Source of the DNA: a virus
Lineage: Duplodnaviria > Heunggongvirae > Uroviricota > Caudoviricetes
DNA length: 11,597 nt
Reading direction: 5' to 3' (one strand)
Virus record (IMG/VR): IMGVR_UViG_638341087_000009
Location: 1 to 11,597 of that record
The position numbers and the translations under genes were made by a program. Every line of letters begins with the position of its first letter. Position 1 is the stretch's first letter. This document shows, piece by piece, positions 1-11,597 of the stretch. The notes beneath the pieces are model-generated. The model saw only the letters and a list, made by a program, of their open reading frames with translations, did not search any database and was not told the origin of the DNA.

Positions 1-478
1 ACAGAGAATCCACCCATAACACTGTTTTTGGTTTTAACTGTTCCGCGTGCGCTGAGCCGCATTCACCGCATCACAAAATTCACTTTAAAAAGGGCGGCAG
101 AGCAGCCACGGAGTAAAACTGATACCGCCAAACGTCACCAGAAAATTGATAACAGAGGGCGTTGCAGCGGGGTTGTCACTTAAGCGTATGGTCAACCTGA
201 CAACCCGGTGTCCTCAACGGGGAAGGAATAACCCCGCCATACTTACCGCCGCGCCATTTCGCGGAGTGCCACAACCGGAAGCGCACGGTCGACGAAAATT
301 TAACGACAGGCTATCTATGAACCAGCTACCTCGCCGTGCGCTTTCGCGTTATGGTCTGACTTTTCAGGGAAATATCCTTTCAGTAAACTGTCAGTGCCGG
401 ATGCTCACCCGTGTCCGGCGCACGTACTCCACCTCACCCGTGGAGAACTCCTTAATCACCAACCCTCAGGAGGGTGAA

Positions 479-754
479 ATGTCGACTGAAAATGATGAAA
501 TCATTAACTCCCTGATACGCCAAATTAATAATTTTGATAAAGCATTGCAGCATGCTGCGGCGCGTAGTGATATAACTCTTTTAGCAATTTCATTTCTTGC
601 ATCTGTTATGGATAAAAATGAAGTCGTACGACAGAGTCTTGTTGATTATATCGACTCGCTTCAACCCGGCACTTTCAATCATGAGAGCTTCAATCATGAG
701 AAAGAGCATGTTAAGTCTGTAATTAATTCTCTTATTTTGAATCAAAAGAATTAA
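479..754 (+). CDS. Hypothetical small protein (91 aa), AT-rich insert (moron-like) in the early-left region
   Basis: ATG at 479 preceded by AGGAGGG (466-472, 6-nt spacing). Visibly lower GC than flanks. In-frame 15-bp tandem duplication (674-686 / 689-701, encoding FNHES/FNHEK). The upstream part of the 146..754 track ORF is Arg/Pro-rich, GC-rich and has no SD, so the start was moved to 479. No family recognised. Confidence 0.5.
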   Translation: MSTENDEIINSLIRQINNFDKALQHAAARSDITLLAISFLASVMDKNEVVRQSLVDYIDSLQPGTFNHESFNHEKEHVKSVINSLILNQKN

Positions 755-1052
755 TGCTTTTTGTTGCAAAGTAATTTTCAAGGGGTTCTATTCGAATCCC
801 TTTCTTTTTCATTAACAAGCCAAACCCCTTATCAATGATGTCCATTAGATCCAGGAAGTATTTTTCATGTAAATCCTGGTTATCAGAGAGCTGCTTCTCT
901 TCGTACAGACCGATAAAGGCACGACGCACGTTACCGGATATAGTATCGATGGTTTCTTTTTCTACGGTACTCAGGTCAAGAGTCGCCAGTTGGGAACGAA
1001 CTATATTCGCTGCCATTTCCTGGAATTGCATTGGTAAATCTTTAAATTCCAT
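732..1052 (-). CDS. Hypothetical protein (106 aa), last gene of the leftward early operon
   Basis: ORF with GAGG 6 nt upstream of ATG (complement of 1050-1052). Its 3' end overlaps the 479..754 gene convergently by 23 nt. No family recognised. Confidence 0.5.
   Translation of the reverse strand: MEFKDLPMQFQEMAANIVRSQLATLDLSTVEKETIDTISGNVRRAFIGLYEEKQLSDNQDLHEKYFLDLMDIIDKGFGLLMKKKGIRIEPLENYFATKSINSFDSK
780..809 (+). terminator. Candidate intrinsic terminator downstream of the 479..754 gene
   Basis: Hairpin 782-788 / 794-800 (GGGGTTC / GAATCCC, one G-U pair, 5-nt loop) followed by TTTCTTTTT (801-809). It lies inside the 3' end of the convergent 732..1052 ORF. Confidence 0.35.
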
Positions 1053-1074
1053 TATTAGCCTCGTTGGTTAGCTA

Positions 1075-1293
1075 TTAACGCGGGTATGTAATCATTCTGG
1101 CAATGCTTAATGCCGCTGCTTTTTCCAGATTGGTGATATCCTGCTCCAGAGCGGACAGATTTTCAGCCTGCTTAGCCCTGGCTTCATTAGCCCATTTCAG
1201 ATCCTGCGCTGCATTAATTTTCTGGCGCATCCACTCATAAAGTTCATCATCGGTATAGTCTGGCGAGATGATGACGGGTTCTCGTTTCTGCAT
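1075..1293 (-). CDS. Hypothetical small coiled-coil-like protein (72 aa)
   Basis: ORF with GAGGAA 5 nt upstream of ATG (complement of 1291-1293). Charged, helical-looking sequence; 22-nt gap to the next gene downstream. Confidence 0.55.
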   Translation of the reverse strand: MQKREPVIISPDYTDDELYEWMRQKINAAQDLKWANEARAKQAENLSALEQDITNLEKAAALSIARMITYPR

Positions 1294-1322
1294 ACTGATT
1301 CCTCGCGGTGCTGCTTCGCTTA

Positions 1323-1451
1323 TCAGCCGTTAGATTTTGCCGAGCTGGAAAGCGCCTGTTTAAACTCACTGAAGCTGAGAGCTTCTTCGCCTTCGGCAAG
1401 GCCTTCGAAGTATTCTTCGTAAGCCTTTTCCATGATTGTGTCGAAATCCAT
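1323..1451 (-). CDS. Small acidic protein (42 aa), not in the supplied ORF track
   Basis: Hand translation of the minus strand gives MDFDTIMEKAYEEYFEGLAEGEEALSFSEFKQALSSSAKSNG. AGGTGA lies 6 nt upstream; the start sits 1 nt after the stop of the upstream 80-aa gene. The two listed ORFs covering this interval (1247..1456 -, 1308..1505 +) look like frame shadows. Confidence 0.45.
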   Translation of the reverse strand: MDFDTIMEKAYEEYFEGLAEGEEALSFSEFKQALSSSAKSNG

Positions 1452-1452
1452 A

Positions 1453-1695
1453 TCACTCACCTGAGTTTCTTTCCAGCCAGCGACGGGCACCATTTTCGGT
1501 TTTAAACGTTTTGCTTTTGGTATACGTCATCGCGGTGAATGTGCCGTCCTGGTTGGGAAACACGCCGTACACCAGAGATTCATTGTTGCCAAGATCGATA
1601 GTATCCATGCTGACCTCATTTCCCCTTAACGCCGGGGTAGCGGAACTAAAAAACTGCTGCGCTGTTATATAAAGTGTTCCCGCCGTCATGTTCAT
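1453..1695 (-). CDS. Hypothetical protein (80 aa), first gene of the leftward early operon
   Basis: ORF with GAGGCG 4 nt upstream of ATG; sits about 85 nt downstream of the pL-like promoter. Not Arg-rich, so not obviously N-like. An internal Met would give a 50-aa product. Confidence 0.5.
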   Translation of the reverse strand: MNMTAGTLYITAQQFFSSATPALRGNEVSMDTIDLGNNESLVYGVFPNQDGTFTAMTYTKSKTFKTENGARRWLERNSGE

Positions 1696-1787
1696 ACGCC
1701 TCGGGCTGGCTACTTAACCCCTGACCACTGCCGGGTAACTCGAGGTATTGCCCTGCGTTCTGTGGGGCGGGGTGGGTTGGTGAGCGC

Positions 1788-1817
1788 ATCATAAAACACA
1801 TAAAATGTGTTAGTCAA
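1788..1817 (-). promoter_or_regulatory. pL-like sigma70 promoter for the leftward early operon
   Basis: Minus strand reads TTGACT (complement of 1812-1817), 18-bp spacer, TATGAT (complement of 1788-1793). Read directly from the sequence. Confidence 0.5.
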
Positions 1818-1831
1818 CACAAAAAAAGTGT
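1795..1831. promoter_or_regulatory. Two operator-like palindromes (ACACA-N5-TGTGT type) inside the pL-like promoter
   Basis: Site A 1795-1811 AACACA-TAAAA-TGTGTT, a perfect 17-bp palindrome in the promoter spacer. Site B 1817-1831 ACACA-AAAAA-AGTGT, overlapping the -35. Centres are 21 bp apart (two helical turns). The same motif recurs at 2849-2865. Confidence 0.5.
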
Positions 1832-1840
1832 GCGCAAGAA

Positions 1841-1872
1841 TAAAAAAACTCCCATTCAAGAGGTGATGGGAG
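1841..1872 (-). terminator. Intrinsic terminator ending the repressor/toxin-antitoxin transcript
   Basis: Stem 1849-1855 CTCCCAT / 1866-1872 ATGGGAG, followed on the minus strand by a 7-nt U tract (plus-strand A run 1842-1848). Immediately downstream of the ParE-like stop. Confidence 0.6.
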
Positions 1873-1883
1873 GTGGTTGATTA

Positions 1884-2171
1884 TTAACCGTTACCAGGAT
1901 ATTGCTGACGAGCATGTATCACGCTTACAATTTCAATGCTTGAAGTCGCTACCCTGTATAGGATTATGTAGTTAGGGTGGGTCACAATTTCTCTCAATCC
2001 AGAAACCCGTTCGCTTGGCGGGTATAGATACGGATGCTCAGATAGGGGCAGCACCGATGTTTCAATGCGTATTTTTAGTCTGCGCGCTGCCGGAGGGTTT
2101 TTTTTAGCAATGTAAGTTATAATCTGACTTAAATCATCGCGAGCAGACGGTAACCATAAAACGGGCAGCAT
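1884..2171 (-). CDS. parE: ParE/RelE-family type II toxin (95 aa)
   Basis: MLPVLWLPSARDDLSQIITYIAKKNPPAARR...YIILYRVATSSIEIVSVIHARQ fits the ParE pattern (L.W...A..DL..I..YIA...P.AA ... Y.I.YRV......I..V.HARQ). The start overlaps the upstream antitoxin stop (TAATG). The longer track ORF (136 aa) has an implausible Arg/Lys-rich N-terminal extension. Confidence 0.85.
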   Translation of the reverse strand: MLPVLWLPSARDDLSQIITYIAKKNPPAARRLKIRIETSVLPLSEHPYLYPPSERVSGLREIVTHPNYIILYRVATSSIEIVSVIHARQQYPGNG

Positions 2172-2362
2172 TACACGCTCCCGTTTTCCATGGCAATTTG
2201 ATTGATGATTTTTTCCATTTTTGCCATTACTTCGTCGTGCGGTATTGCTGGTCGTGGATCTGCAAGGCTTGCTGCAACCTTGGCGCGCAACCATTCGTTG
2301 TAACTGTTTTCTTGCTCGATAGTTTCAAATTCTGAAACTATTGGCGAAAGAACTGTGCTCAT
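2171..2362 (-). CDS. Cognate antitoxin (63 aa), ParD-like by context
   Basis: MSTVLSPIVSEFETIEQENSYNEWLRAKVAASLADPRPAIPHDEVMAKMEKIINQIAMENGSV. GAGAGG lies 7 nt upstream of the ATG; it is translationally coupled to parE. Assignment as antitoxin is strong; the exact family is less certain. Confidence 0.65.
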   Translation of the reverse strand: MSTVLSPIVSEFETIEQENSYNEWLRAKVAASLADPRPAIPHDEVMAKMEKIINQIAMENGSV

Positions 2363-2390
2363 AGTATGCCTCTCTGTCGTATGGTTGTAA

Positions 2391-2789
2391 TTATGCTCGA
2401 CGTCCTTTTTGGGCGGCGAGCCATCTTGCAACTGTGCGATCCATTGATTCTTTTTTGTCTTTCATGTCTTTAAGCATTTGTTCTTGCTCCTCTTCTGGGA
2501 AAGCCCCAAATGTTTGAAGCAAATCTCTCTGGCGCGGTCCTATTTTCATTGTATCAGGTACTACAACCTGTTCATCCTCGCTCGGAGGAAGCATGAACCA
2601 AAAAATAGGCCGAGCAGTTATTTGTGAAAGTCGATCTAAATTGTCAGGATTTGGACTAACCAAGCCTGCAGACCATCGCTGCACTGTTTGTTGCGACACT
2701 CCAACTAATTTCCCAAGCTCCGCCTGACTCCAGCCTGTTTCAGACAAGAGTTTCTTTATTCTATATGCAGTAATCTCGAGTGTTTTCAT
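2391..2789 (-). CDS. racR: Prophage repressor, RacR-like (XRE-family HTH), 132 aa from the proposed start
   Basis: HTH motif ...GWSQAELGKLVGVSQQTVQRWSAG... near the N-terminus. Start chosen at MKTLEIT (complement of 2787-2789); a TAGAAT -10 lies about 7 nt upstream, suggesting a near-leaderless mRNA like lambda cI from pRM. The alternative upstream start (2879) has no SD and would run through the operator region. Confidence 0.75.
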   Translation of the reverse strand: MKTLEITAYRIKKLLSETGWSQAELGKLVGVSQQTVQRWSAGLVSPNPDNLDRLSQITARPIFWFMLPPSEDEQVVVPDTMKIGPRQRDLLQTFGAFPEEEQEQMLKDMKDKKESMDRTVARWLAAQKGRRA

Positions 2790-2796
2790 AGTAACA

Positions 2797-2869
2797 ATTC
2801 TACTCAAAAAACGAGTAATGCGCGACACACGAAAATCGGGTTTACATATACACATTTTTTGTGTAATCT
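2797..2869. promoter_or_regulatory. Immunity switch region: divergent promoters and operator palindromes
   Basis: Leftward -10 TAGAAT (complement of 2797-2802) with a poor -35. Rightward TTTACA (2841-2846) with a -10-like TGTAAT/TAATCT (2862-2869). Palindrome TACACA-TTTTT-TGTGTA at 2849-2865 has the same half-sites as the pL operators. A second, different palindrome TACTC-N7-GAGTA sits at 2801-2817. Confidence 0.5.
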
Positions 2870-2895
2870 CCAGTCGCATGATGGAGGTACAAATA

Positions 2896-3168
2896 ATGAA
2901 TGATCATGTTAAGAAAAGGGTCGCGGGAAAATTTTCACAACGAGAACTGGCTATGTTAATGAGCACGAAACAACAAAGCGTATCTCGTTGGTTCAACTCT
3001 AAGTTCCCTGCATCAAGGGTGCTTCACTTGTGTCAATTGATGCAGTGGGAGGTTACTCCACACGAACTCCGACCAGACATTTACCCTAACCCAACCGACG
3101 GTTTACCCGTTGGATGTAAGGCTAACACATCAAATGCACCGGAGTTGATTCATGAAAATCAAGCATGA
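2896..3168 (+). CDS. ydaS: YdaS-like Cro/HTH protein (90 aa)
   Basis: GGAGG (2883-2887) 8 nt before ATG 2896. HTH-like ...FSQRELAMLMSTKQQSVSRW.... Divergent from the repressor, as in the Rac racR-ydaS-ydaT arrangement. The track ORF from 2818 is an upstream extension through the operator region. Confidence 0.7.
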   Translation: MNDHVKKRVAGKFSQRELAMLMSTKQQSVSRWFNSKFPASRVLHLCQLMQWEVTPHELRPDIYPNPTDGLPVGCKANTSNAPELIHENQA

Positions 3169-3577
3169 ACACATCCGCATGGCGATGAATGCCTGGGCGC
3201 ATCCGGACGGCGAGAAAGTACCGGCTGCGAAAATTACCAAAGCGTATTTCGAACTGGGTATGACGTTCCCGGAACTGTATGACGACAGCCATCCGGAAGC
3301 CCTGGCTCGCAATACCCAGAAAATTTTCCGCTGGGTAGAGAAAGACACTCCTGATGCGGTTAAAAAAATTCAGGCGTTGTTACCAGCTATCGAAAAAGCA
3401 ATGCCACCTCTGCTGGTGGCCCGAATGCGCAGCCATAGCTCAGCCTATTTTCGGGAACTGGTGGAGACGCGGGAACGACTGGTGAGAGACGCTGATGATT
3501 TTGTCGCAGTGGCGATCGCTGGTTTCAACCAGATGAATCGTGGTGGCCCTGCAGGAAATATTGTGGCTGTGCATTGA
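3152..3577 (+). CDS. ydaT: YdaT-like protein (141 aa)
   Basis: ATG 3152 with GGAG 7 nt upstream; overlaps the ydaS 3' end by 17 nt. Sequence MKIKHEHIRMAMNAWAHPDGEKVPAAKITKAYFELGMTF... and the synteny recall Rac prophage YdaT. Confidence 0.7.
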   Translation: MKIKHEHIRMAMNAWAHPDGEKVPAAKITKAYFELGMTFPELYDDSHPEALARNTQKIFRWVEKDTPDAVKKIQALLPAIEKAMPPLLVARMRSHSSAYFRELVETRERLVRDADDFVAVAIAGFNQMNRGGPAGNIVAVH

Positions 3578-3648
3578 CTCGCAATATTCATACCGGATCA
3601 CTTCCGGCAATTTGTGAGTAAAAAGATTCGGTATCAGAAGAGGTGAGT

Positions 3649-4686
3649 ATGGCTAACGCCTGGCTCAGATTATGGCATGACATGCCAAATGATCCTAAGT
3701 GGCGAACAATTTCCAGGGTGTCAGGACAGCCAATCGCAACAGTGATGGCTGTGTATATCCACCTTCTGGTGAGCGCGTCACGAAATGTCACGACATGTCA
3801 CGGCGTGTCACTACGTGGTCACATTGATGTCACGACGGAAGATTTAGCAAGTGCGCTTGATGTGACGGAAGACGTAATTGATTCAATTTTGCATGCAATG
3901 CAGGGGCGGGTTCTGGATGGTGACCTTATTTCCGGATGGGAAAAACGTCAGGTGCTGAAAGAGGACAATGGTAACGTTTCGCAAACGGCAAAATCCCCGG
4001 CAGAGCGCAAGAGAGCGCAGCGGGAGCGCGAAAAGCTGCGGAAATATGATGCTGATTGTCACGATGAGTCACGACGTGTCACGCATCTGTCACGACAAGT
4101 CACGACAGATAAAGATACAGATACAGAATTAAACCCCACACATAACGCGCGCATGCGCGAGAGTGCTCCAACCGGTGAGTCGAATGGTGCGTCGTTGCAG
4201 ACAGCCGAACCTGAATACCTGGACGGCCTGAGCGAACCGATCGGGAAATTTTCGATGACCACTGTCTGGCAGCCGTCGCCGGATTTTCGACAACGGGCAG
4301 CAGTGTGGGGTATGGCTCTGCCTGAGCCGGAATTTACACCTGCTGAGCTTGCCGCATTCCGGGATTACTGGATGGCGGAGGGGAAGGTTTTCACGCAGGT
4401 TCAGTGGGAGCAGAAATTTGCCCGCCACGTGCAGCACGTCAGGGCACAGGTAAAACCAGTCAGCAAGGGGGTAAGCCATGCAGCATCAGGTGGCACGGCA
4501 TCACGGGCAGTTCAGGAAATCCGGGCAGCACGCGAACAGTGGGAACGTGACAACGGATTTATCAGCAACGGAAACGGCCTGGAAGCTGTGGGAGCTTATG
4601 GGGGAGGTGTATTCGAACCGCTGGACACAGAAGAACGGGGCCGCACCTTCGAAGCTCTGGATTGCCCAGATTGGCGCGATGACTGA
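3649..4686 (+). CDS. Replication initiator (lambda O-like role); 3' boundary uncertain
   Basis: ATG 3649 with GAGGTG 4-9 nt upstream. The N-terminus MANAWLRLWHDMPNDPKWR looks like a phage replisome-organiser N-domain. The gene contains two iteron clusters in its low-complexity linker, as the lambda origin lies inside O. The last 209 nt overlap the P-like gene in another frame. Confidence 0.65.
   Translation: MANAWLRLWHDMPNDPKWRTISRVSGQPIATVMAVYIHLLVSASRNVTTCHGVSLRGHIDVTTEDLASALDVTEDVIDSILHAMQGRVLDGDLISGWEKRQVLKEDNGNVSQTAKSPAERKRAQREREKLRKYDADCHDESRRVTHLSRQVTTDKDTDTELNPTHNARMRESAPTGESNGASLQTAEPEYLDGLSEPIGKFSMTTVWQPSPDFRQRAAVWGMALPEPEFTPAELAAFRDYWMAEGKVFTQVQWEQKFARHVQHVRAQVKPVSKGVSHAASGGTASRAVQEIRAAREQWERDNGFISNGNGLEAVGAYGGGVFEPLDTEERGRTFEALDCPDWRDD
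3777..3834. repeat. Iteron cluster 1: six GTCAC(G) repeats at 10-11 bp spacing
   Basis: GTCACG at 3777, 3787, 3797 and 3829; GTCACT at 3807; GTCAC at 3818. Units resemble tGTCACGnnn. Confidence 0.75.
4058..4135. repeat. Iteron cluster 2 (five GTCACG repeats) with an adjacent AT-rich patch: candidate origin
   Basis: GTCACG at 4058, 4068, 4078, 4089 and 4099 (10-11 bp phasing), followed by AGATAAAGATACAGATACAGAATTAAACC (4107-4135). Confidence 0.7.
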
Positions 4687-5140
4687 ACAGCAAATCCGGC
4701 TGGTCTGCCGTCAGTGCATGGACCGCTGCCGGGCGGGTGAAACGTGGCCCCCGGACCTTGCTGAGTTTGTTGCACTGATTTCGGAGAGTGGGGCAAATCC
4801 ATTTGGTCTTACGGTGGATGCAGTGATGGAAGAGTACCGGCGCTGGCGCAATGAATCCTGGCGATACGACGGGAGTGATAAATACCCGTGGCCACAGCCT
4901 GTGCTGTACCACATCTGCCTCGAAATGCGTACCAGAGGGATTGAGCGCCAGATGACGCAGGGTGAGTTAAAACGACTTGCGGAACGGCAACTGACGAAAT
5001 GGGCAAAGCATGTTGGTAACGGGATGAGTGTTCCGCCAGTGCGACGACAACTGGAAGGGGCGAAACACCCGCAAGGGCCAACGCCAATTGAACGGCTGAA
5101 ACAGGAATACGAACGCCGGAAGGCAGCTGGTTTTATTTGA
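4478..5140 (+). CDS. Lambda P-like replication protein (DnaB helicase loader), 220 aa
   Basis: Segment ...DLAEFVALISE...MEEYRRWRNESWRYDGSDKYPWPQPVLYHICLEMRTRG...ELKRLAERQL... matches from memory lambda P (...FVAWCRE...YEYCRKRGLYPDAESYPWKSNAHYWLVTNLYQNMRANALTDAELRRKAADEL...). AAGGGGG (4465-4471) lies 6 nt before ATG 4478. Alternative in-frame starts are ATG 4598 and ATG 4679, the latter overlapping the O-like stop as ATGACTGA. Confidence 0.7.
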   Translation: MQHQVARHHGQFRKSGQHANSGNVTTDLSATETAWKLWELMGEVYSNRWTQKNGAAPSKLWIAQIGAMTEQQIRLVCRQCMDRCRAGETWPPDLAEFVALISESGANPFGLTVDAVMEEYRRWRNESWRYDGSDKYPWPQPVLYHICLEMRTRGIERQMTQGELKRLAERQLTKWAKHVGNGMSVPPVRRQLEGAKHPQGPTPIERLKQEYERRKAAGFI

Positions 5141-5173
5141 ATCTGAGAAACGATTTTGTCGGAGGAAATATTA

Positions 5174-5848
5174 ATGGAAACCGTATCTGACGCACTGAAA
5201 GCACTGAAAAAAGCCTCTTCACATGTGGTGGCAGCTCGCCTTGGAATCAGTCGTGAAGAGGCTGTCAACGAGCTGTGGGAACTCAAAAGAAAAGGCGTCG
5301 TTGATAAAACTGGTCACACCTGGTTTCTGGCTGGCGAAGGTGAATCCCGGGTAACCGAAGAGCGGCCAGTAAAATCTGAAGCACAGGATATGCTGACCGG
5401 GGAGGTCGAACAAAAAGTTACCGCAGACATGATGATTGAGTTTATCGGTCAGGATGGGGCTAAAACGTGTGAGGAACTGGCGGGTAAGTTCGGTGTCAGT
5501 ACTCGCAAGGTTGCTTCCACGCTGGCGGTGGTAACCGCAACGGGGCGGCTGGCACGCGTTAATCAGAACGGTAAATTTCGTTACTGCATGCCGGGCGATA
5601 ATTTACCAGCAGAGCCGAAAGCCGCGCTGGTAACGGAAAGTGATGGTAAGGCCTTTCCTCAGCCAGCAGGTGCTGCGTTACCAGTCCGGGAAGCCGCAAC
5701 ACAGGAAGAAATTAAAACAGAAACTGTGGCGGACATTGTGCAGCCGTTGCCATCGTTTACCGAAACGCAAGCAGATGAGCTGATTTTTCCGTCCCTTCGC
5801 AGGGCAAACCTGGCGCTGCGCAGGGCGAAAAGTGATGTTCAGAAGTGA
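5174..5848 (+). CDS. Hypothetical protein (224 aa) with two winged-helix-like repeats
   Basis: GGAGGA (5161-5166) 7 nt before ATG 5174. Two similar modules of about 50 aa (ALKALKKASSHVVAARLGISREEAVNELWELKRKGVVDKTG and MIEFIGQDGAKTCEELAGKFGVSTRKVASTLAVVTATGRLARVNQNG). Function unknown. Confidence 0.6.
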   Translation: METVSDALKALKKASSHVVAARLGISREEAVNELWELKRKGVVDKTGHTWFLAGEGESRVTEERPVKSEAQDMLTGEVEQKVTADMMIEFIGQDGAKTCEELAGKFGVSTRKVASTLAVVTATGRLARVNQNGKFRYCMPGDNLPAEPKAALVTESDGKAFPQPAGAALPVREAATQEEIKTETVADIVQPLPSFTETQADELIFPSLRRANLALRRAKSDVQK

Positions 5849-5959
5849 GAGCGAGTCTGCGCCGCGCTGCGGGAGCTGAACAAGCACCGGGATATTGTTC
5901 GACAGATTACTGATTCTTCCCGCCGTGTTGTATCGGAAAAGTGATTGCCGGAGGCGCTT

Positions 5960-6382
5960 ATGGCAAAAGTATTTACACAAGAAGAGCGGGAAAAAATTAA
6001 AGGGCAGGTTGTTGAACTAGTACGCCGGAGTGGGCGCGAGACGTTACGGCAACTGGAAGCCAAGACAGGTGCGACAAGATATCTGATGAGCGTTCTCGCC
6101 AGAGAGCTGGTTGCCAGTGGCGATGTATACAACTCTGGTTACGGGTTATTCCCGTCTGAACAGGCTCGTAAGGACTGGCAAAATGCCCGCAAAAAACTAT
6201 CTAGGGCAAAGGTGAAGAAACCATCTGTGGTTGATCCGGATCTTATCTGGTCATTACCAGACGGAGAAATACGCCGCTACGACAGGCGTCTGAACATAAT
6301 CTGTAGCGAGTGCCGGAAGAGCGAAGCTATGCAGCGTGTACTGGCTTTCTATCAGGGTAATTTTCAGAAGGTGCTGTTGTGA
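5960..6382 (+). CDS. Hypothetical protein (140 aa), nin-like region
   Basis: GGAGG (5950-5954) 5 nt before ATG 5960. Charged N-terminus with a C-terminal CSEC motif. No family recognised. Confidence 0.55.
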   Translation: MAKVFTQEEREKIKGQVVELVRRSGRETLRQLEAKTGATRYLMSVLARELVASGDVYNSGYGLFPSEQARKDWQNARKKLSRAKVKKPSVVDPDLIWSLPDGEIRRYDRRLNIICSECRKSEAMQRVLAFYQGNFQKVLL

Positions 6383-6487
6383 GCCAAATTAACAATCGGA
6401 ACTTCGTGAAGAGAAAGCATAATCCAAATCTGAATAATTAAGTTCAGCACTGTAAATAAAATTTAATCCTTAACTGGAGGTATATTT

Positions 6488-6700
6488 ATGTTAAATACAC
6501 AGAAAGCCATTAATGCGGAAAAATATAACGAGTGGGCAAGAAAATTCTCTGAGCAGATTTTTAAAATTACTGGCGATGAGAATGTGGCAAAAAATGAATT
6601 AGAACCGTGGACACCTGAAGGAAACGCACCAAATTATTGCTGGTGGGAGGTTGATCCGGTTGATGCTGCAAATGAAGCCATGAGTTACCACAACGATTAA
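6488..6700 (+). CDS. Hypothetical small protein (70 aa), AT-rich
   Basis: GGAGG (6476-6480) 7 nt before the ATG, in an AT-rich island. No family recognised. Confidence 0.55.
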   Translation: MLNTQKAINAEKYNEWARKFSEQIFKITGDENVAKNELEPWTPEGNAPNYCWWEVDPVDAANEAMSYHND

Positions 6701-6704
6701 TGTC

Positions 6705-6735
6705 GGGAGGCCGCCCGAAAGGGCGGTAAGAAATG
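6705..6735 (+). promoter_or_regulatory. SD-hairpin-start codon arrangement upstream of the membrane-protein gene
   Basis: GGGAGG (6705-6710), then hairpin CCGCCC-GAAA-GGGCGG (6711-6726, GAAA tetraloop), then ATG 6733. The hairpin sits between the SD and the start codon. Confidence 0.35.
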
Positions 6736-6951
6736 ACTACATTATTCAGAAAAGAATATCCGCAAAAAAGTAGGGCGACAGAATTTTTGTTTCTCATTCT
6801 GTTTATCGTATTGATGATACCGATATCCCCTCTAATTTTTGTCTGGGCAATCGGGAAAATAATTGAGCCAGTTACTGAATTGTATACCGACGTTGTATGG
6901 GCGTCGTTCAACACACTGCACAATAAAATTAATCCGTATAAGGAAAACTGA
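6733..6951 (+). CDS. Small predicted membrane protein (72 aa)
   Basis: Hydrophobic stretch EFLFLILFIVLMIPISPLIFVWAIG consistent with a transmembrane helix. Its stop overlaps the next start as TGATATG. Confidence 0.5.
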   Translation: MTTLFRKEYPQKSRATEFLFLILFIVLMIPISPLIFVWAIGKIIEPVTELYTDVVWASFNTLHNKINPYKEN

Positions 6952-6952
6952 T

Positions 6953-7216
6953 ATGGCAACTTTGACAAAAAAAGAACGGGCATGGTTAAACGAATTACAG
7001 GAAGTTCTTGATCGCTGTCCATCACCGAAAAAAATTGGCTTTTACACCATTGGCGATAAAAGCATTTACCTGTATGACCTACGCCGCATGGATGAAATCA
7101 TGGAGGCTCTTGATAATCGTTCGTCGATGGATTGGTGTGTTGCTGTTCATGATATGAATGCAGGGTTTGATGAAAAGATTTTGTTCCCCTCATCAGTTGA
7201 AAGCACTGCGGGTTAA
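6953..7216 (+). CDS. Hypothetical small protein (87 aa)
   Basis: ATG 6953 two nt after the upstream stop, with AAGGAAAA upstream. The track ORF from 6863 is an upstream extension overlapping the preceding gene. Confidence 0.5.
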   Translation: MATLTKKERAWLNELQEVLDRCPSPKKIGFYTIGDKSIYLYDLRRMDEIMEALDNRSSMDWCVAVHDMNAGFDEKILFPSSVESTAG

Positions 7217-7226
7217 GGAGTAACAC

Positions 7227-8096
7227 ATGACCACTATTACCAAAGAACGTATTGAATTGTTCATTAAAAATCCGGTTGAAAACGGGCTTACCCGTGGTGA
7301 ACAAATGGAACTGGCACGGATTGCGCTGGCATCGCTGGAAGCAGAGCCGGTGGCAAAGATTATAGCTCATTACCCATTAGGGGTTGACGTAGGCAAACAA
7401 AAATTCGTACAGGCCATTAGAGAGCTTCCTGACTTTGGCGGATATCTATTTGCCGCCCCTCCAGCGCCGATAGTGCCGGAAGAAATGTATTGGCAGGATG
7501 CGCCAGTTGAAGGCAGCAGCAAAGCGGCTGCATACGCTACAGGCTGGAACGATTGCCGCGAAGCCATGCTTCAGTCCGGAAACTTTCGGGAAAATAAAGA
7601 TTCGTCAACCAATAATTTTCGGAAAATCCCGGAAGCGTCAACCAGCTCTCCGGTAACTCCGGCTCTTCTGCCTGGTGGTTTCACCATTGAGGAGGCGAAG
7701 GAATTACATGAAGACCTGGTACGCAGCCACATAAGCAAGGCCTTAAGTGGCGAAAAGATGAAAAAGAAAGATCGCGATGCTGATTTGCGCTGGATTCATG
7801 GCGTTATAGTTCAGGCAGCGTGGTTTGTAAAAGCATCACTGGAGCAGAATGCACTATCGGGCAACTATCCGGTAACTCCGGATAGTTGGATAAGCTGTAG
7901 TGAGCGAATGCCGGATACCAAAACAGCCGTTCTTGTTGCCGTGGAGTTTGACAGGAAAGGTGACTGGCGAATGAAATGGGCGACTTACATCCCGGGGCAT
8001 CCTGACGCTAATGATGGGTGGATAATTCCTGGTGCGTCGTGGAAACCGTCACACTGGATGCCGCTACCAGAACCGCCGCAGGAGGTGCGCCAATGA
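7227..8096 (+). CDS. DUF551 domain-containing phage protein (289 aa)
   Basis: AAGGAG (7215-7220) 6 nt before the ATG. C-terminus ...WISCSERMPDTKTAVLVAV...GWIIPGASWKPSHWMPLPEPP matches the DUF551 signature recalled from memory (WxxxxExxP ... HWMPLPEPP). The roughly 220-aa N-terminal region is unassigned. Confidence 0.7.
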   Translation: MTTITKERIELFIKNPVENGLTRGEQMELARIALASLEAEPVAKIIAHYPLGVDVGKQKFVQAIRELPDFGGYLFAAPPAPIVPEEMYWQDAPVEGSSKAAAYATGWNDCREAMLQSGNFRENKDSSTNNFRKIPEASTSSPVTPALLPGGFTIEEAKELHEDLVRSHISKALSGEKMKKKDRDADLRWIHGVIVQAAWFVKASLEQNALSGNYPVTPDSWISCSERMPDTKTAVLVAVEFDRKGDWRMKWATYIPGHPDANDGWIIPGASWKPSHWMPLPEPPQEVRQ

Positions 8097-8176
8097 ACTG
8101 GCCTGAAGCATTTGCAATTACAGGCGTTGCTATGGCTATCGCTTTTTTAGTATATGTTATTTGTCGGTGGGGGTAA
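8093..8176 (+). CDS. Unannotated tiny hydrophobic ORF (27 aa): MNWPEAFAITGVAMAIAFLVYVICRWG
   Basis: ATG overlaps the upstream stop (ATGA); GGAGGTG (8081-8087) lies 5 nt upstream. One predicted transmembrane segment. Too short for the ORF track. Confidence 0.35.
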   Translation: MNWPEAFAITGVAMAIAFLVYVICRWG

Positions 8177-8211
8177 AAACGTTCGCCGGGATTAACACCA
8201 AAGGAGGGAAT

Positions 8212-8316
8212 ATGTCGGATGATATCTCACTGGCAATGGAAGGTGCGCTGGCTGTTATTGCTGTTGTGGGCGTTTACTGCCTGGTTGTGTTTTTGATGGA
8301 TCGACTAGGGAACTAA
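8212..8316 (+). CDS. Unannotated small membrane peptide (34 aa): MSDDISLAMEGALAVIAVVGVYCLVVFLMDRLGN
   Basis: Strong SD AAGGAGGG (8201-8208) 3-4 nt before the ATG. One transmembrane segment with a charged C-terminus. Confidence 0.45.
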   Translation: MSDDISLAMEGALAVIAVVGVYCLVVFLMDRLGN

Positions 8317-8324
8317 ATTCATTA

Positions 8325-8346
8325 CGATATGGGAATTCCCATATCG
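8325..8346. repeat. 22-bp perfect palindrome CGATATGGGAATTCCCATATCG
   Basis: Exact inverted repeat with no spacer, centred on GAATTC, between the small-peptide gene and the hok promoter. Confidence 0.8.
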
Positions 8347-8358
8347 GGTAAAAACGGT

Positions 8359-8386
8359 TTGCGGTAAAGCGAGAGTTAAGTAGAAT
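8359..8386 (+). promoter_or_regulatory. Candidate promoter for the hok/mok mRNA
   Basis: TTGCGG (8359-8364), 16-bp spacer, TAGAAT (8381-8386). Predicted start near 8393 gives an mRNA of about 420 nt to the terminator at 8812, similar to known hok mRNAs. Confidence 0.4.
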
Positions 8387-8440
8387 TGCTGCGGGCGCTT
8401 GAGGCTGTCTGCCTCGGGCATGCCACCGTAAGGCAGACAG

Positions 8441-8512
8441 AGAAAAGCCCCAGTTAACATTACGCGTCCGGCAAGACGCTTAACATTAATCTGAGGCCAT
8501 ATCTATGCTCTA
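8441..8512 (-). ncRNA. Candidate Sok-like antisense RNA (about 70 nt)
   Basis: Weak minus-strand promoter (TTGCCT, complement of 8543-8548; 17-bp spacer; TAACCT, complement of 8520-8525). Transcript would be antisense to the mok-frame SD and ATG (8493-8507). It would end in a minus-strand hairpin (arms 8491-8497 / 8447-8453, inner stem 8464-8468 / 8475-8479) followed by UUUUCU. Structure-based inference only. Confidence 0.3.
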
Positions 8513-8561
8513 CACACGTAGGTTAGCCTCTTACGTGCCGAAAGGCAAGGAGAAGCAGGCT

Positions 8562-8717
8562 ATGAAGCAGCAAAAGGCGATGCTAATCGCCCTGATCGTC
8601 ATCTGTTTAACCGTCATAGTGACGGCACTGGTAACGAGGAAAGACCTCTGCGAGGTACGAATCCGAACCGGCCAGACGGAGGTCGCTGTCTTCACAGCTT
8701 ACGAACCTGAGGAGTAA
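8562..8717 (+). CDS. hokD: Hok/Gef-family type I toxin (51 aa), closest to HokD/RelF; in-frame Mok-like extension from ATG 8505
   Basis: MKQQKAMLIALIVICLTVIVTALVTRKDLCEVRIRTGQTEVAVFTAYEPEE is the Hok family signature (transmembrane helix plus ...TRK.LCE..IR.G..EVAAF.AYE). AAGGAG (8547-8552) lies 9 nt before ATG 8562. The upstream in-frame ATG 8505 with its own GAGG gives a 70-aa form, as in chromosomal mok genes. Confidence 0.85.
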   Translation: MKQQKAMLIALIVICLTVIVTALVTRKDLCEVRIRTGQTEVAVFTAYEPEE

Positions 8718-8785
8718 GAGACCCGGCGGGGGAGAAATCCCTCGCCACCGCTGATGTGTCAGGCATCCTCAACGCACCCGCACTT

Positions 8786-8812
8786 AACCCGCTTCGGCGG
8801 GTTTTGTTTTTT
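8786..8812 (+). terminator. Intrinsic terminator of the hok transcript
   Basis: Stem AACCCGC / GCGGGTT with TTCG loop (8786-8803), followed by TTGTTTTTT. Confidence 0.65.
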
Positions 8813-8884
8813 CTGGTCGTTCTGGTTTACAATCCATCCGTCAGCCTGAACAACTGGCACCTGCTGCGCCAGCAGAGAAAACAG

Positions 8885-9163
8885 ATGGCGCACGATACCA
8901 AATTTTACAATTCGGATAACTCTGCCGCCCCTGCCAGCAGGCACGGGCGGCGTTCCCGCACTTTCAAATCTGACTGGTTCCAGCATCCCCCATGCACTGA
9001 AGAACAGGCCGAGTGGCTAATTCAGTGCTACCGCAGACACGGATACGAGATTAAGAAAGCCCTCAGCCTCGATTATCGTCACTGGATAATCTCCGTCAGG
9101 CTTCCTTACTCCGAACGACCACCGCGTCCGTCCCGCACATTCCAGCAACGCATCTGGAGGTAA
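8885..9163 (+). CDS. Hypothetical protein (92 aa), Rem-like by position
   Basis: ATG 8885; the track ORF from 8756 would run through the terminator. The order hok, small protein, DUF968 protein, Q matches my recollection of Qin prophage hokD-rem-ydfU-quuQ. Weak SD. Confidence 0.5.
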   Translation: MAHDTKFYNSDNSAAPASRHGRRSRTFKSDWFQHPPCTEEQAEWLIQCYRRHGYEIKKALSLDYRHWIISVRLPYSERPPRPSRTFQQRIWR

Positions 9164-9164
9164 C

Positions 9165-10211
9165 GTGCGGGTATTACTTCGACCTGTTCTGGTACCGGAA
9201 CTCGGGCTGGTGATCGTTAAGCCGGGCCGTGAATCCATGCCGGTATTCCACAATACCCGGGTACTGGTGGAGCCGGAACCGAAAAGCATGCGTAATCTGC
9301 CGTCCGGGGTCGTTCCTGCCGTTCGCCAGCCGCTGGCGGAGGATAAATCATTACTGCCATTTTTCAGCGACGAACGAGTGATTCGTGCTGCTGGTGGCGC
9401 TGGCGCATTGTCTGACTGGCTGTTGCGCCATATTAAATCCTGCCAGTGGCCACACGGCGATTATCATCACAGCGAAACCGTCATTCACCGTTATGGTACC
9501 GGCGCAATGGTGTTGTGCTGGCACTGCGACAACCAGCTGCGCGACCAGACCTCCGAATCACTGGAACATCTGGCTCAACAAAACCTGGCAGCCTGGATGA
9601 TTGACGTCATACGCCATGCAATGAATGGCTCGCAGGAGCGTGAATTATCTCTGGCTGAATTATCCTGGTGGGCGGTCCGCAATCAGGTGGCGGACGCGCT
9701 ACCGGAAGCGGTATTACGTCGTTCGCTGGGGTTGCGTGCGGAAAAAATCCGCTCAATGTACCGTGAAAGCGACATCGTACCGGGAGAGCAGACCGCCACC
9801 AGCATACTGAAGCAGCGCACAAAAAATCTTGCGCCGCTGCCTCACGCTCACCAGCAAAAACCGCCACAGGAAAAGACGGTGGTCAGCATTGCCGTTGATC
9901 CTGAGTCTCCGGAATCTTTCATGAAACGACCTAAACGTCGCCGCTGGGTTAACGAGAAATACACGCACTGGGTGAAGACACAGCCGTGTGCGTGTTGTGG
10001 TAAGCCTGCTGACGATCCGCATCACCTGATTGGTCATGGTCAGGGGGGAATGGGGACAAAATCTCACGATATTTTCACGCTACCGCTGTGTCGGGAGCAT
10101 CACAACGAGCTTCATGCGGATCCGCTGGCGTTCGAAGAAAAGCATGGTTCTCAGGTTGATTTAATTTTTCGTTTTCTTGATCACGCCTTTGCAACTGGCG
10201 TGCTTGGGTAA
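9165..10211 (+). CDS. ydfU: YdfU-like DUF968 protein (348 aa) with a Cys/His metal-binding-like C-terminus
   Basis: GTG start 4 nt after GGAGG (9156-9160). C-terminal motif ...QPCACCGKPADDPHHLIGHGQGGMGTKSHDIFTLPLCREHHNELH.... Length is close to K-12 YdfU (about 349 aa, recalled from memory). Confidence 0.7.
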   Translation: MRVLLRPVLVPELGLVIVKPGRESMPVFHNTRVLVEPEPKSMRNLPSGVVPAVRQPLAEDKSLLPFFSDERVIRAAGGAGALSDWLLRHIKSCQWPHGDYHHSETVIHRYGTGAMVLCWHCDNQLRDQTSESLEHLAQQNLAAWMIDVIRHAMNGSQERELSLAELSWWAVRNQVADALPEAVLRRSLGLRAEKIRSMYRESDIVPGEQTATSILKQRTKNLAPLPHAHQQKPPQEKTVVSIAVDPESPESFMKRPKRRRWVNEKYTHWVKTQPCACCGKPADDPHHLIGHGQGGMGTKSHDIFTLPLCREHHNELHADPLAFEEKHGSQVDLIFRFLDHAFATGVLG

Positions 10212-10223
10212 AAGAGGTGACTG

Positions 10224-10583
10224 ATGCTCATAGATTTGGTTTTACCTTACCCGCCGACGGTGAACACTTACTGGCGACGCCGTGGCAGCACATATTTTGT
10301 ATCAAAAGCCGGGGAGCGTTATCGCCGGGCTGTGGCGCTTATTGTTCGCCAGCAGCGACTGAAATTAAGCCTGTCCGGACGGCTGGCAATAAAAATTATT
10401 GCAGAGCCACCGGATAAGCGTCGTCGTGACCTGGACAATATTCTGAAAGCACCGCTGGATGCGCTGACGCATGCGGGAGTGCTCATTGATGACGAGCAGT
10501 TTGATGAAATCAATATTGTACGTGGTCAGCCAGTATCTGGTGGACGGCTGGGTGTGAAGATTTACAAAATTGAGAGTGAGTGA
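10224..10583 (+). CDS. rusA: RusA-family Holliday junction resolvase (119 aa)
   Basis: ...LPYPPTVNTYWRRRG...PPDKRRRDLDNILKAPLDALTHAGVLIDDEQ...GGRLGVKIY... matches RusA motifs recalled from memory (PPSNNRYY..., PDRRRRDLDN..K...DALT.AG...DD, GGRL). GAGGTG lies 4 nt before the ATG. Confidence 0.85.
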   Translation: MLIDLVLPYPPTVNTYWRRRGSTYFVSKAGERYRRAVALIVRQQRLKLSLSGRLAIKIIAEPPDKRRRDLDNILKAPLDALTHAGVLIDDEQFDEINIVRGQPVSGGRLGVKIYKIESE

Positions 10584-10591
10584 GCGTAAAT

Positions 10592-11122
10592 ATGATATAT
10601 CCGGAAATTACAGGCAAAAGCGGCGAACATTTACGCCTGAACACGCTGGAAGCAGTCTGGATCCAGGGGAAATTACGGATGTGGGGGCGGTGGTCGTATA
10701 TCGGTGGGGGTAAATCCGGAAATATGTTTAACCGGTTACTGGTTTCGAAAAAGCTGACGAAAACAGCAGTTAATGAGGTTTTACGCAGCATGAAGAAATC
10801 CGGGCTGGAAAAACCGGAACTTGAGGCATTTTTTCGGGATATGACCAGAGGGAAGCAGAAGAGCTGGTTGTCACATTGTACAGACACAGAGGCGTTGATT
10901 ATTGATCGCGTTATCAGTGAGGTGCTTGGGGAATATCCCGGGCTAATCAATATTCTCCGGCAAAGGTACGAAGGACGGGGAATGAGTAAGAGAAAAATGG
11001 CAGAATGTTTAAATCGTACTCACCCGGAATGGTGTTTCAGCACATGTGAGAAACGTATTGCAGGTTGGTTAGCCGTGGCTGAACACATGCTTTATGTACC
11101 TATGCACGATTCATTTCGATAA
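10592..11122 (+). CDS. Q-like late-gene antiterminator (176 aa); assignment mainly positional
   Basis: Immediately follows rusA (start 8 nt after its stop) and precedes a short terminator-bounded region, as Q does in lambdoid phages. Sequence similarity to Q families is not verified. Confidence 0.5.
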   Translation: MIYPEITGKSGEHLRLNTLEAVWIQGKLRMWGRWSYIGGGKSGNMFNRLLVSKKLTKTAVNEVLRSMKKSGLEKPELEAFFRDMTRGKQKSWLSHCTDTEALIIDRVISEVLGEYPGLINILRQRYEGRGMSKRKMAECLNRTHPEWCFSTCEKRIAGWLAVAEHMLYVPMHDSFR

Positions 11123-11129
11123 AAAAAGC

Positions 11130-11158
11130 TTGCTTTTTTACGCAGAAACAGCTTGAAT
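11130..11158 (+). promoter_or_regulatory. Candidate pR'-like late promoter
   Basis: TTGCTT (11130-11135), 17-bp spacer, TTGAAT (11153-11158), 8 nt after the Q-like stop. Weak match; placement is by analogy. Confidence 0.2.
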
Positions 11159-11216
11159 TCCTGTAAGCTTCGCAAAGCTGTATCGCGAGGCGAAATGCAA
11201 GTTTTTTCGCACAAGG

Positions 11217-11241
11217 AAGCCACCGGAAGGTGGTTTTTTTT
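11217..11241 (+). terminator. Intrinsic terminator (tR'-like)
   Basis: Stem GCCACC / GGTGG(T) with GGAA loop (11219-11233), followed by an 8-nt T run (11234-11241). Confidence 0.65.
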
Positions 11242-11364
11242 GTGTCCGTAATATACAGCAGCGCAATAAATTCGCTGGTGGTTATTAATACCGTTCTTTC
11301 AGCTTGCTGGCTTTTTCGACAAGAGTTATTGGTGTGTCACGTTAACCGAAAAAGGGAAAAAGAC

Positions 11365-11562
11365 ATGCTGAAACAGCAGGATATGACCGAAACCGCCAGA
11401 GTGGTGTTTAATGAATTAAGCGTTACCGAACCGGCGACAGTCGGGGAGGTTGCGCAGAATACTTACCTTTCACGCGAACGCTGCCAGTTAATACTGACCC
11501 AGCTTGTTATGGCGGGTCTGGCAGACTATCAGTGCGGTTGTTACAGACGCCTTCAGTCCTGA
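11365..11562 (+). CDS. Hypothetical small protein (65 aa), first gene after the tR'-like terminator
   Basis: ATG 11365 with AAGGG 8 nt upstream. The track ORF from 11230 would begin inside the terminator. Not hydrophobic, so not a holin. Confidence 0.45.
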   Translation: MLKQQDMTETARVVFNELSVTEPATVGEVAQNTYLSRERCQLILTQLVMAGLADYQCGCYRRLQS

Positions 11563-11575
11563 AGGCTTTTTATTT
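11549..11575 (+). terminator. Candidate intrinsic terminator overlapping the stop codon of the 65-aa gene
   Basis: Stem GCCTTCA / TGAAGGC with GTCC loop (11549-11566), followed by TTTTTATTT. Confidence 0.5.
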
Positions 11576-11597
11576 GTGGTGAATGGGCGGCTGGTGG

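Follow-up and report, generated by a model that had tools for sequence, protein, structure and literature searches.

What does a short open reading frame (ORF) do when it stands directly behind the late antiterminator gene of a tailed phage, between two terminators and in the slot that lambda fills with its holin gene? The question is raised by IMG/VR virus record IMGVR_UViG_638341087_000009 (Caudoviricetes), positions 1 to 11,597 of which form the window analysed here (11,597 nucleotides (nt) in all). A 65-aa frame at positions 11365-11562 had been picked out in an earlier note, made from the letters alone, as a small soluble protein that might be a regulator. We find that this gene belongs to a cassette which, in nearly all relatives, lies 5' of tRNA/stx or lysis genes and keeps a constant distance to a covarying leader RNA and to a methyltransferase of the M.EcoGII family. 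Its product is predicted to be a winged-helix protein that may control the methyltransferase module, whose enzyme has been lost from the window lineage.

A conserved gene between two terminators

The gene, its ribosome-binding signal and the terminators on either side of it are as follows.

11209-11241, plus strand: tR'-like intrinsic terminator, with a CCACC-GGAA-GGTGG stem at 11220-11233 and T8 at 11234-11241
11352-11357, plus strand: Shine-Dalgarno-like AAGGGA, 7 nt 5' of the ATG, read from the sequence
11365-11562, plus strand: gene for a 65-aa protein, a predicted stand-alone winged helix (PHROG 331; identical to WP_000917770.1)
11549-11575, plus strand: hairpin and T-run over the last codons and the stop (second terminator, t2)

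The gene runs from an ATG at 11365 to a TGA at 11560-11562 and specifies the product MLKQQDMTETARVVFNELSVTEPATVGEVAQNTYLSRERCQLILTQLVMAGLADYQCGCYRRLQS. A program-made list of ORFs shows a GTG-started version of 110 aa (11230-11562); the 65-aa form is taken as the real one because conservation across genera starts exactly at the ATG at 11365, and the upstream extensions called in some records are not conserved. An AAGG/AGGG motif is kept at the Shine-Dalgarno position in an alignment of upstream regions.

The placing of the frame between two terminators, with its stop codon inside a terminator stem, was borne out. In the upstream terminator, A-tract/U-tract pairing extends the stem from 11209, giving -20.1 kcal/mol (z -4.5, with 0/200 shuffles as stable); an equivalent hairpin and T-run are present in all aligned relatives, and a rho-independent terminator is annotated at the equivalent place in SfV. 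The t2 hairpin (GCCTTCA-GTCC-TGAAGGC, 7 bp, 11549-11566; -11.1 kcal/mol, z = -2.25) is followed by TTTTTATTT to position 11575, and the TGA forms the first three bases of its 3' arm. It is maintained through compensatory substitutions in its 3' arm, which is non-coding (GCCTTC/GAAGGC versus GCCTCC/GGAGGC or GGGGGC); its T-run is weak or absent in several genera. Terminator-like sites number three in 10900-11597, against 0.8 expected.

The ORF is no peculiarity of the window, since it belongs to a catalogued family, PHROG 331, carried by roughly 40% of complete E. coli genomes. Relatives numbered 294 (E <= 0.01) in a search of 5.8 billion proteins; their sources are E. coli, Shigella, Salmonella, Klebsiella, Citrobacter, Buttiauxella and Scandinavium, and NCBI names many of them 'TrmB family transcriptional regulator' and others 'hypothetical'. 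The frame is conserved from M1 across E. coli, Salmonella, Klebsiella, Citrobacter and Buttiauxella, among others. The family is narrow, with 88 representatives at E <= 0.001 among 1.84 billion clusters at 50% identity, and is already catalogued and annotated, as function unknown.

Across 18 codon-aligned copies of the small ORF from different species, the median dN/dS was 0.075 and the maximum 0.23 (76 pairs), with synonymous sites saturated and dN about 0.1. Variable columns, out of 63, numbered 56 at third codon positions, 28 at first and 22 at second, while the start, the length (63-67 aa) and the position of the stop are all maintained in the family. This pattern identifies 11365-11562 as a genuine protein-coding gene. 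That the ORF is instead a by-product of conserved RNA or DNA signals between the two terminators is highly improbable. Such a reading could draw on two parts of the ORF that are unusually conserved at the nucleotide level, but it is met by the substitution pattern, by the saturation of synonymous sites and by a confidently predicted fold. The two stretches, 11365-11395 (the first ~30 nt) and 11480-11505 (TGCCAGTTAATACTGAC), keep even their third positions between subfamilies whose proteins are about 50% identical, which could point to an overlapping signal in RNA or DNA, or to recombination that has joined parts of different subfamilies. The GC content of the cassette is 0.515, compared with 0.491 for the window; as this is not distinctive, base composition gives no sign of a foreign origin.

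A predicted minimal winged helix

The protein matches PHROG 331 (function unknown) over residues 1-64 (126 bits, E = 8.3e-37), alongside the other catalogued members phiP27 L23 and SfV orf47. AlphaFold, run on a 30-sequence alignment, gave a model with a pLDDT of 92.8 and a pTM of 0.81, in which a three-helix bundle (H1 9-16, H2 26-33, H3 37-49), with H2-H3 as the helix-turn-helix, is followed by a beta-hairpin wing with strands at 53-56 and 59-62. The wing call depends on alignment depth: in an earlier model from 20 sequences (pLDDT 83.7), which the 30-sequence model supersedes, the C-terminus was a low-confidence helix. As modelled, the protein is a minimal stand-alone winged helix (wHTH) of the DNA-binding type, in keeping with the suggestion of a small regulator.

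Searches of Pfam, NCBIfam, the PDB and predicted folds placed it in no characterised subfamily. Pfam TrmB (PF01978) scored 17.8 bits (E = 0.003), below the gathering cut-off of 25.6 bits, and because the protein also ends after the wing, at residue 65, with no C-terminal effector (sugar-binding) domain, membership of TrmB was rejected. An NCBIfam scan of the 65-aa protein matched no model, PDB sequence searches with the protein and with the family profile gave insignificant matches only, and Foldseek with the 20-sequence model returned a best E of about 1. A literature search by accession, by SfV orf47/orf48, by N15 gp51 and by gene context found nothing on this winged-helix protein.

The protein is soluble, as the earlier note had it, its maximum 19-residue Kyte-Doolittle mean of 1.04 indicating no transmembrane segment. 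The stress laid there on cysteine is only partly justified: there are three, of which C40 alone is family-wide (at least 90% of sequences), C59 occurs in one subfamily only and C57 is peculiar to the window lineage. Residues invariant across the family are an N-terminal MT motif, a set in helix 3 (C40, L44, T45, Q46, A50 and G51) and an aromatic-basic-basic end to the wing. Codon 57 (11533-11535), at a conserved hydrophobic position of the wing, encodes Cys in the window lineage and a near-invariant Phe in relatives (YQFGCY to YQCGCY). The window lineage also carries I29V.

Linkage to an M.EcoGII-type methyltransferase and a structured leader

In phiP27 (L23) and 1720a-02, the small ORF is followed by a 352-aa beta-class N6_N4 methyltransferase, with the tRNA-stx region just beyond, and many Stx2 phages carry both genes. 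The two are paired in 14/14 GTDB loci from other species and in 78/80 IMG/VR loci of a subfamily with just 51% identity (the remaining two lie on contigs that stop within 90 nt of the ORF), as well as in SfV (orf47-orf48), Morganella IME1369_02, Providencia PSTRCR_117lys and Hafnia yong2. In all 78 informative IMG/VR loci the methyltransferase starts 353-354 nt after the ORF start. What lies upstream of the pair varies: a GIY-YIG gene in phiP27, and at least four unrelated Q types elsewhere.

The enzyme of 1720a-02 has been named as very similar to M.EcoGII, which is non-specific, toxic when expressed constitutively and silent in the lysogen, and the methyltransferase was characterised without the small protein (PMC5778455). 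In E. coli O104:H4 the gene 3' of the small ORF encodes 349 aa and occurs twice; this agrees with the description of M.EcoGI/M.EcoGII, for which a length of 349 aa is given (PMC5778455). Homologous methyltransferases have been found inactive in lysogens (PMC6602927).

Between the two genes lies a conserved leader of 147-152 nt (ORF to methyltransferase), only the beginning of which falls inside the window.

11572-11597, plus strand: 5' end of the leader (first ~25 nt), containing the second Chi site; covariance-model positions 1-25, 15.7 bits, 3'-truncated by the end of the window
Full copies in related loci: L008 5204-5348; L101 3206-3350; L105 1867-2006; L107 1813-1956; L111 396-534

The leader is more conserved than the ORF and has a multi-helix fold. 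In an alignment of 13 sequences, compensatory change is seen in 5/26 pairs, and none of the shuffles covaries as strongly. A covariance model then found sequences outside its training set, with E-values from 1e-11 to 8e-5, in N15, phiKO2, PY54, Klebsiella 48ST307, an Enterobacter phage, Serratia OS31, Vibrio VHML and MAR, and Aeromonas PhAER-1. With these added, 19/26 pairs are compensatory and 93.9% of cells are paired, a level that 0/500 shuffles equal and that compares with 24-46% in slid controls, though this extended alignment is fitted to the covariance model and so favours the structure. In the copies that were read through (N15-type phages, Serratia OS31, VHML/MAR and PhAER-1) the leader lies between a terminator and the methyltransferase start. 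No obvious Shine-Dalgarno site precedes the methyltransferase ATG. Rfam 15 scans of the window, the ORF region and related loci, by gathering threshold and by E-value, returned nothing for the ORF region or the leader and matched only sok, DicF, tRNAs and STnc100 elsewhere. The leader (~145 nt) is a candidate new cis-regulatory RNA. A palindrome within it, GCTTTAGCGCTAAAGC, was considered as a DNA operator; an RNA hairpin is the likelier explanation, as its arms differ from lineage to lineage in a compensated way and the leader has G-U pairs at other places.

Replacement of the methyltransferase in the window lineage

The window ends 35 nt past the stop of the small ORF, and its continuation was therefore read from near-identical prophages. 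EHEC prophages, among them those of O26 and O103 genomes, agree with the final 1.1 kb of the window at 99.7-99.9% identity, and 811 complete genomes have a match to at least 80% of that segment. The gene order in the EHEC prophages is Q, the small ORF (WP_000917770.1, 'hypothetical protein'), a 237-aa AraC-family gene, tRNA-Ile, tRNA-Arg, tRNA-Arg, TerB and DUF3927, and then SASA esterase, DUF1378, DUF826, class II holin and lysozyme, which is a Stx-phage layout without stx. The lysis cassette is thus present, behind the AraC-like gene, the tRNAs and the esterase; with a holin about 5 kb 3' of it, the small ORF does not stand in for the holin.

L003 10198-10911, just past the equivalent of the window end in a 99.9% identical prophage: AraC-family regulator, 237 aa (HTH_AraC, PHROG 1450)

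In the window lineage, then, the leader and methyltransferase are not found at ~150 nt: the methyltransferase has been replaced by the AraC-type gene, which sits where relatives carry the enzyme. Only the first ~60 nt of the leader survive, detectable as a weak remnant (19.6 bits) in the near-identical L003. The AraC-type arrangement occurs in 725 complete E. coli genomes, compared with 2,014 that have the methyltransferase. The AraC-family regulator is YdeO/GadX-like, below cut-offs, and may be a member of the PatE/PsrA/PsrB group of prophage regulators, which control acid resistance and type III secretion (PMC10877973).

Boundaries of the cassette and its upstream signals

Two Chi sites and a conserved non-coding block frame the gene.

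11274-11281, plus strand: Chi GCTGGTGG, exact match, at the left mosaic boundary of the cassette
11303-11339, plus strand: conserved non-coding block, CTTGCTG-N12/13-AGAGTTAT-NN-GTGTGTCA, promoter-like
11590-11597, plus strand: second Chi, at the start of the leader element

Homology to phages of other Q types begins between 11258 and 11314, just past tR' and around the first Chi. The cassette is absent from 933W/Sp5-type phages; in Sakai Sp5, Q is followed directly by tRNAs and stx2. The small gene forms its own cassette right after tR', made up of the promoter-like block, the Shine-Dalgarno site, the ORF and the hairpin/terminator. The 11.6-kb window holds six GCTGGTGG sites (3412, 6639, 9390, 11274 and 11590 on the plus strand and 9796 on the minus strand), where shuffles lead one to expect 0.38; five of the six lie on the strand of rightward/late transcription, and a pair of them, one on each side of the small ORF, falls at its mosaic boundaries. 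The second Chi sits in the 5' arm of a leader helix, which Hafnia retains despite loss of the Chi.

The core of the block is invariant in 17 loci, and the pattern CTTGCTG-N12/13-AGAGTTAY-NN-GTRTGTCA is conserved in all lambdoid copies. A recognisable version is found in phages of Morganella, Providencia and Hafnia, where the protein is only 44-55% identical, and the block recurs 5' of the gene 50-51 operon in N15 and phiKO2, with a better -10-like hexamer (TACAGT), and as a variant in PY54. In the window its hexamers are TTGCTG (11304-11309) and TATTGG (11327-11332), separated by a 17-nt spacer. We read 11303-11339 as a putative weak or regulated promoter, perhaps with an operator. RNAalifold detected no compensatory base-pair change in the block or in the rest of the ORF's 5' untranslated region, and a possible hairpin around the start codon (GTRTGTC/GACATGC) is invariant and hence uninformative on RNA structure. 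Sites for LexA, CRP, IHF, sigma-54, sigma-E and sigma-32 and boxA-like sites were considered for the upstream block, and none fits by eye. A CAGA-N4-TCTG dyad present in some genera is not conserved in E. coli.

Further upstream, the small ORF is preceded by the Q-like gene, of which it is the first 3' ORF, and by a unit resembling the PR'-tR' segment of lambdoid phages.

10224-10583: RusA gene
10580-11122, plus strand: Q-like late antiterminator gene (Pfam DUF1133, 367 bits; Phage_antitermQ, 35 bits)
11130-11158, plus strand: candidate late promoter PR' (TTGCTT at 11130-11135, 17 nt, TTGAAT at 11153-11158), inferred from the sequence

The RefSeq name of the identical Q-like protein is 'DUF1133 family protein'. 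The description of the small ORF as the first late-region gene, in the post-Q/tR' slot where lambda has its holin, stands. The candidate PR' was not called by a consensus promoter scan; from it, the unit 11123-11241 (Q stop to first terminator) would yield an RNA of ~76 nt ending at 11241, which is of the same order of length as the short PR'-tR' RNAs of Stx phages. Rfam gave only sub-threshold matches to this unit (isrD, STnc560), and the equivalent units of Serratia OS31 and PY54 have weak isrK matches.

Expression of the ORF only under antitermination, as first suggested, is doubtful, because the promoter-like block, conserved as far as Morganella, Hafnia and the N15-type phages, precedes the ORF and because the N15-type homologue does not lie behind Q/tR'.

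Possible roles of the protein

The reading that we favour, though at slightly less than an even chance, is that the small protein controls expression of the methyltransferase module through its own promoter block and/or the leader. In such a scheme the winged-helix protein would be a nucleic-acid-binding controller of the module that binds the block and/or the leader, as DNA or RNA, and so sets the timing and amount of the toxic methyltransferase, in a role akin to that of Mu Com for Mom or of the controller (C) proteins found in restriction-modification systems. A recombination event some 50 nt beyond the second Chi would have swapped most of the leader and the methyltransferase for the AraC/YdeO-like gene, so that the window copy would be an intact but orphaned partner with an unusual F57C in its wing, a change that could be a sign that constraint was relaxed or altered once the methyltransferase had gone. 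It is rather unlikely, although worth stating, that the wHTH gene, the leader RNA and the M.EcoGII-type enzyme make up an undescribed three-part module of late-gene control, found in lambdoid and N15-type phages and broken here by recombination. Within that module the protein would act through the leader as Com does for Mom, with an unrelated fold, and/or regulate itself at its conserved promoter block.

Several observations weigh against control of the module by the protein. The protein is slightly acidic in the window lineage (pI 5.1), the block matches only 6/12 consensus promoter positions and was not called by the promoter scan, and no convincing dyad operator was seen in it. The small ORF persists without the methyltransferase in the 725 complete E. 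coli genomes, and also beside other genes such as DUF3927, which fits an independent function; conversely, the leader and methyltransferase occur without a homologue of the small protein in Serratia OS31 and Vibrio VHML/MAR, showing that the protein is not required for the existence of the leader. Nor do the divergences of the two proteins track one another, the identities of small protein and methyltransferase being 51% versus 82% in L025 and 83% versus 77% in Salmonella.

A rival reading is an autonomous moron-type regulator, with its own promoter (possibly active in the lysogen) and its own terminator, that acts on host or other prophage genes and adjoins the methyltransferase because both use a shared post-tR' hotspot. 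We regard this as unlikely, yet it would suit the anatomy of promoter-like block, gene and hairpin/terminator, the Chi-flanked mosaic boundaries, retention beside the AraC-like gene and other neighbours, absence from 933W/Sp5-type phages and the position of the N15-type homologue outside the late operon. It accounts poorly for the constant distance to leader and methyltransferase, which is kept across families, from E. coli as far as Morganella and Hafnia, even at 44-55% protein identity, and which would be hard to obtain by chance co-location; and no host target is known. The suggestion of a moron in the earlier note holds for the optional insertion and the private terminator; a prophage-active promoter is putative, with the conserved TTG and TA at a 17-nt spacing on one side and the 6/12 match and the silence of the scan on the other. 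A protein-protein partner of the methyltransferase, be it an antitoxin-like inhibitor, a chaperone or a specificity/targeting subunit, is a still poorer prospect. An enzyme that is toxic when expressed alone, that was characterised without the small protein (PMC5778455) and that has a small, slightly acidic gene upstream does recall an antitoxin layout; but the divergence of one protein does not follow that of the other, the genes, unlike those of coupled toxin-antitoxin pairs, are kept apart by a hairpin/terminator and a structured leader of 150 nt, several phages have the methyltransferase without the small protein, and the window lineage has the small protein without the methyltransferase. 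Improbable too is a late-transcription factor that modulates the late promoter, terminator read-through or the action of Q. The ORF always lies less than ~150 nt from the late terminator in lambdoid phages, and directly 5' of the annotated late promoter in N15 and phiKO2; however, it is found with at least four unrelated Q types and behind a GIY-YIG gene in phiP27, and many functional lambdoid phages lack it.

Comparison with known systems

Control of the module by the small protein has its closest parallels in Mu Com and in C proteins, whose roles it may share by analogy while failing the defining structural features of both. Mu Com, itself a small protein, is encoded upstream of a toxic DNA-modification gene, whose translation it activates by way of a structured leader in the mRNA. 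As in com-mom, a protein of ~62-65 aa is encoded just 5' of a toxic, late, promiscuous DNA-modification enzyme, with a structured leader around the enzyme start. The equivalent slot in PhAER-1 (L111 529-717) holds an unannotated 62-aa ORF of the Mu Com zinc-ribbon type (PF10122, 34.5 bits against a cut-off of 22.9), which is placed after the leader and runs into the start of the methyltransferase gene, a com-mom-like layout for an adenine methyltransferase and, by analogy, a precedent for a dedicated small controller. The 65-aa protein itself, scanned with Pfam Com (PF10122) with the PhAER-1 ORF as positive control, gave no match at E <= 1. It is a predicted winged helix with one family-wide Cys, whereas Com is a Cys4 zinc ribbon; its ORF lies 5' of the leader, a hairpin/terminator and ~150 nt away from the enzyme, whereas the com and mom genes overlap; in place of Mom there is an N6-adenine methyltransferase, and RNA binding is putative here.

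Like the C proteins of restriction-modification systems, it is a small protein of DNA-binding type at the 5' end of a DNA-modification module, plausibly autoregulating at its own promoter site. C proteins, however, are Xre-type HTH dimers that bind palindromic C-boxes and mainly control endonuclease genes, whereas here there is a winged helix and no endonuclease; no C-box-like dyad was found in the upstream block in alignments that included Morganella, Providencia and Hafnia. Compared with BlaI/MecI-, ArsR- and MarR-type repressors, only the DNA-binding core of 63-65 residues is present, with no dimerisation or ligand domain.

Nearer in setting are the winged-helix proteins of the telomere phages, N15 gp51, phiKO2 gp51 and PY54 ORF59 (75-77 aa, ~20-25% identical, also uncharacterised). 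Alignment with hhalign gave probabilities of 88% for N15 gp51 and 83% for PY54 ORF59, collinear from the MTE motif through helix 3, the E-values being pairwise only; phiKO2 gp51 was linked by its annotation (similar to the N15 gene, winged-helix) rather than by direct comparison. These phages likewise have a late promoter, a terminator, the leader RNA and the methyltransferase family nearby, with an AGAGTTA-containing block upstream in N15 and phiKO2 (a variant in PY54), but there the homologue, in the same orientation as gene 50, precedes the late promoter and does not follow a Q/tR' unit. In N15 and phiKO2 (L105 1506-1733; L109 203-430, 436-453), gp51 is followed by an annotated centromere-like plasmid-partition palindrome, GTGCGACCAYGGTCGCAC, and then by the late promoter, terminator, leader and methyltransferase. 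With lambdoid morons (lambda bor and lom, HK97 gp15) the cassette shares its optional presence between genes that are adjacent elsewhere, its own terminator and a promoter-like element; it differs in that its base composition is not distinctive, its promoter is putative and, in most phages, a second gene is closely tied to it.

Elsewhere in the window, the antitoxin RNA sok (114 bits) was matched at 8393-8567 on the plus strand, in the nin region, which implies a hok/sok module, and the sRNA DicF (75 bits) at 92-143 on the minus strand, at the left end.

Significance

Taken alone, the small ORF is an ordinary conserved phage gene, and such value as it has comes from its partner. For M.EcoGII, a non-specific adenine methyltransferase in wide use, we found no description of natural regulation in the searchable literature. 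The winged-helix gene at its fixed distance, the promoter-like block and the covarying leader together offer a testable handle on how phages may time a dangerous anti-restriction enzyme. The cassette also bears on the biology of Stx phages, since many Stx2 phages carry it after Q/tR' and ahead of the tRNA-stx region, and on the exchange of Chi-flanked modules, in which a methyltransferase appears to have been swapped for an AraC-family, YdeO/GadX-like regulator.

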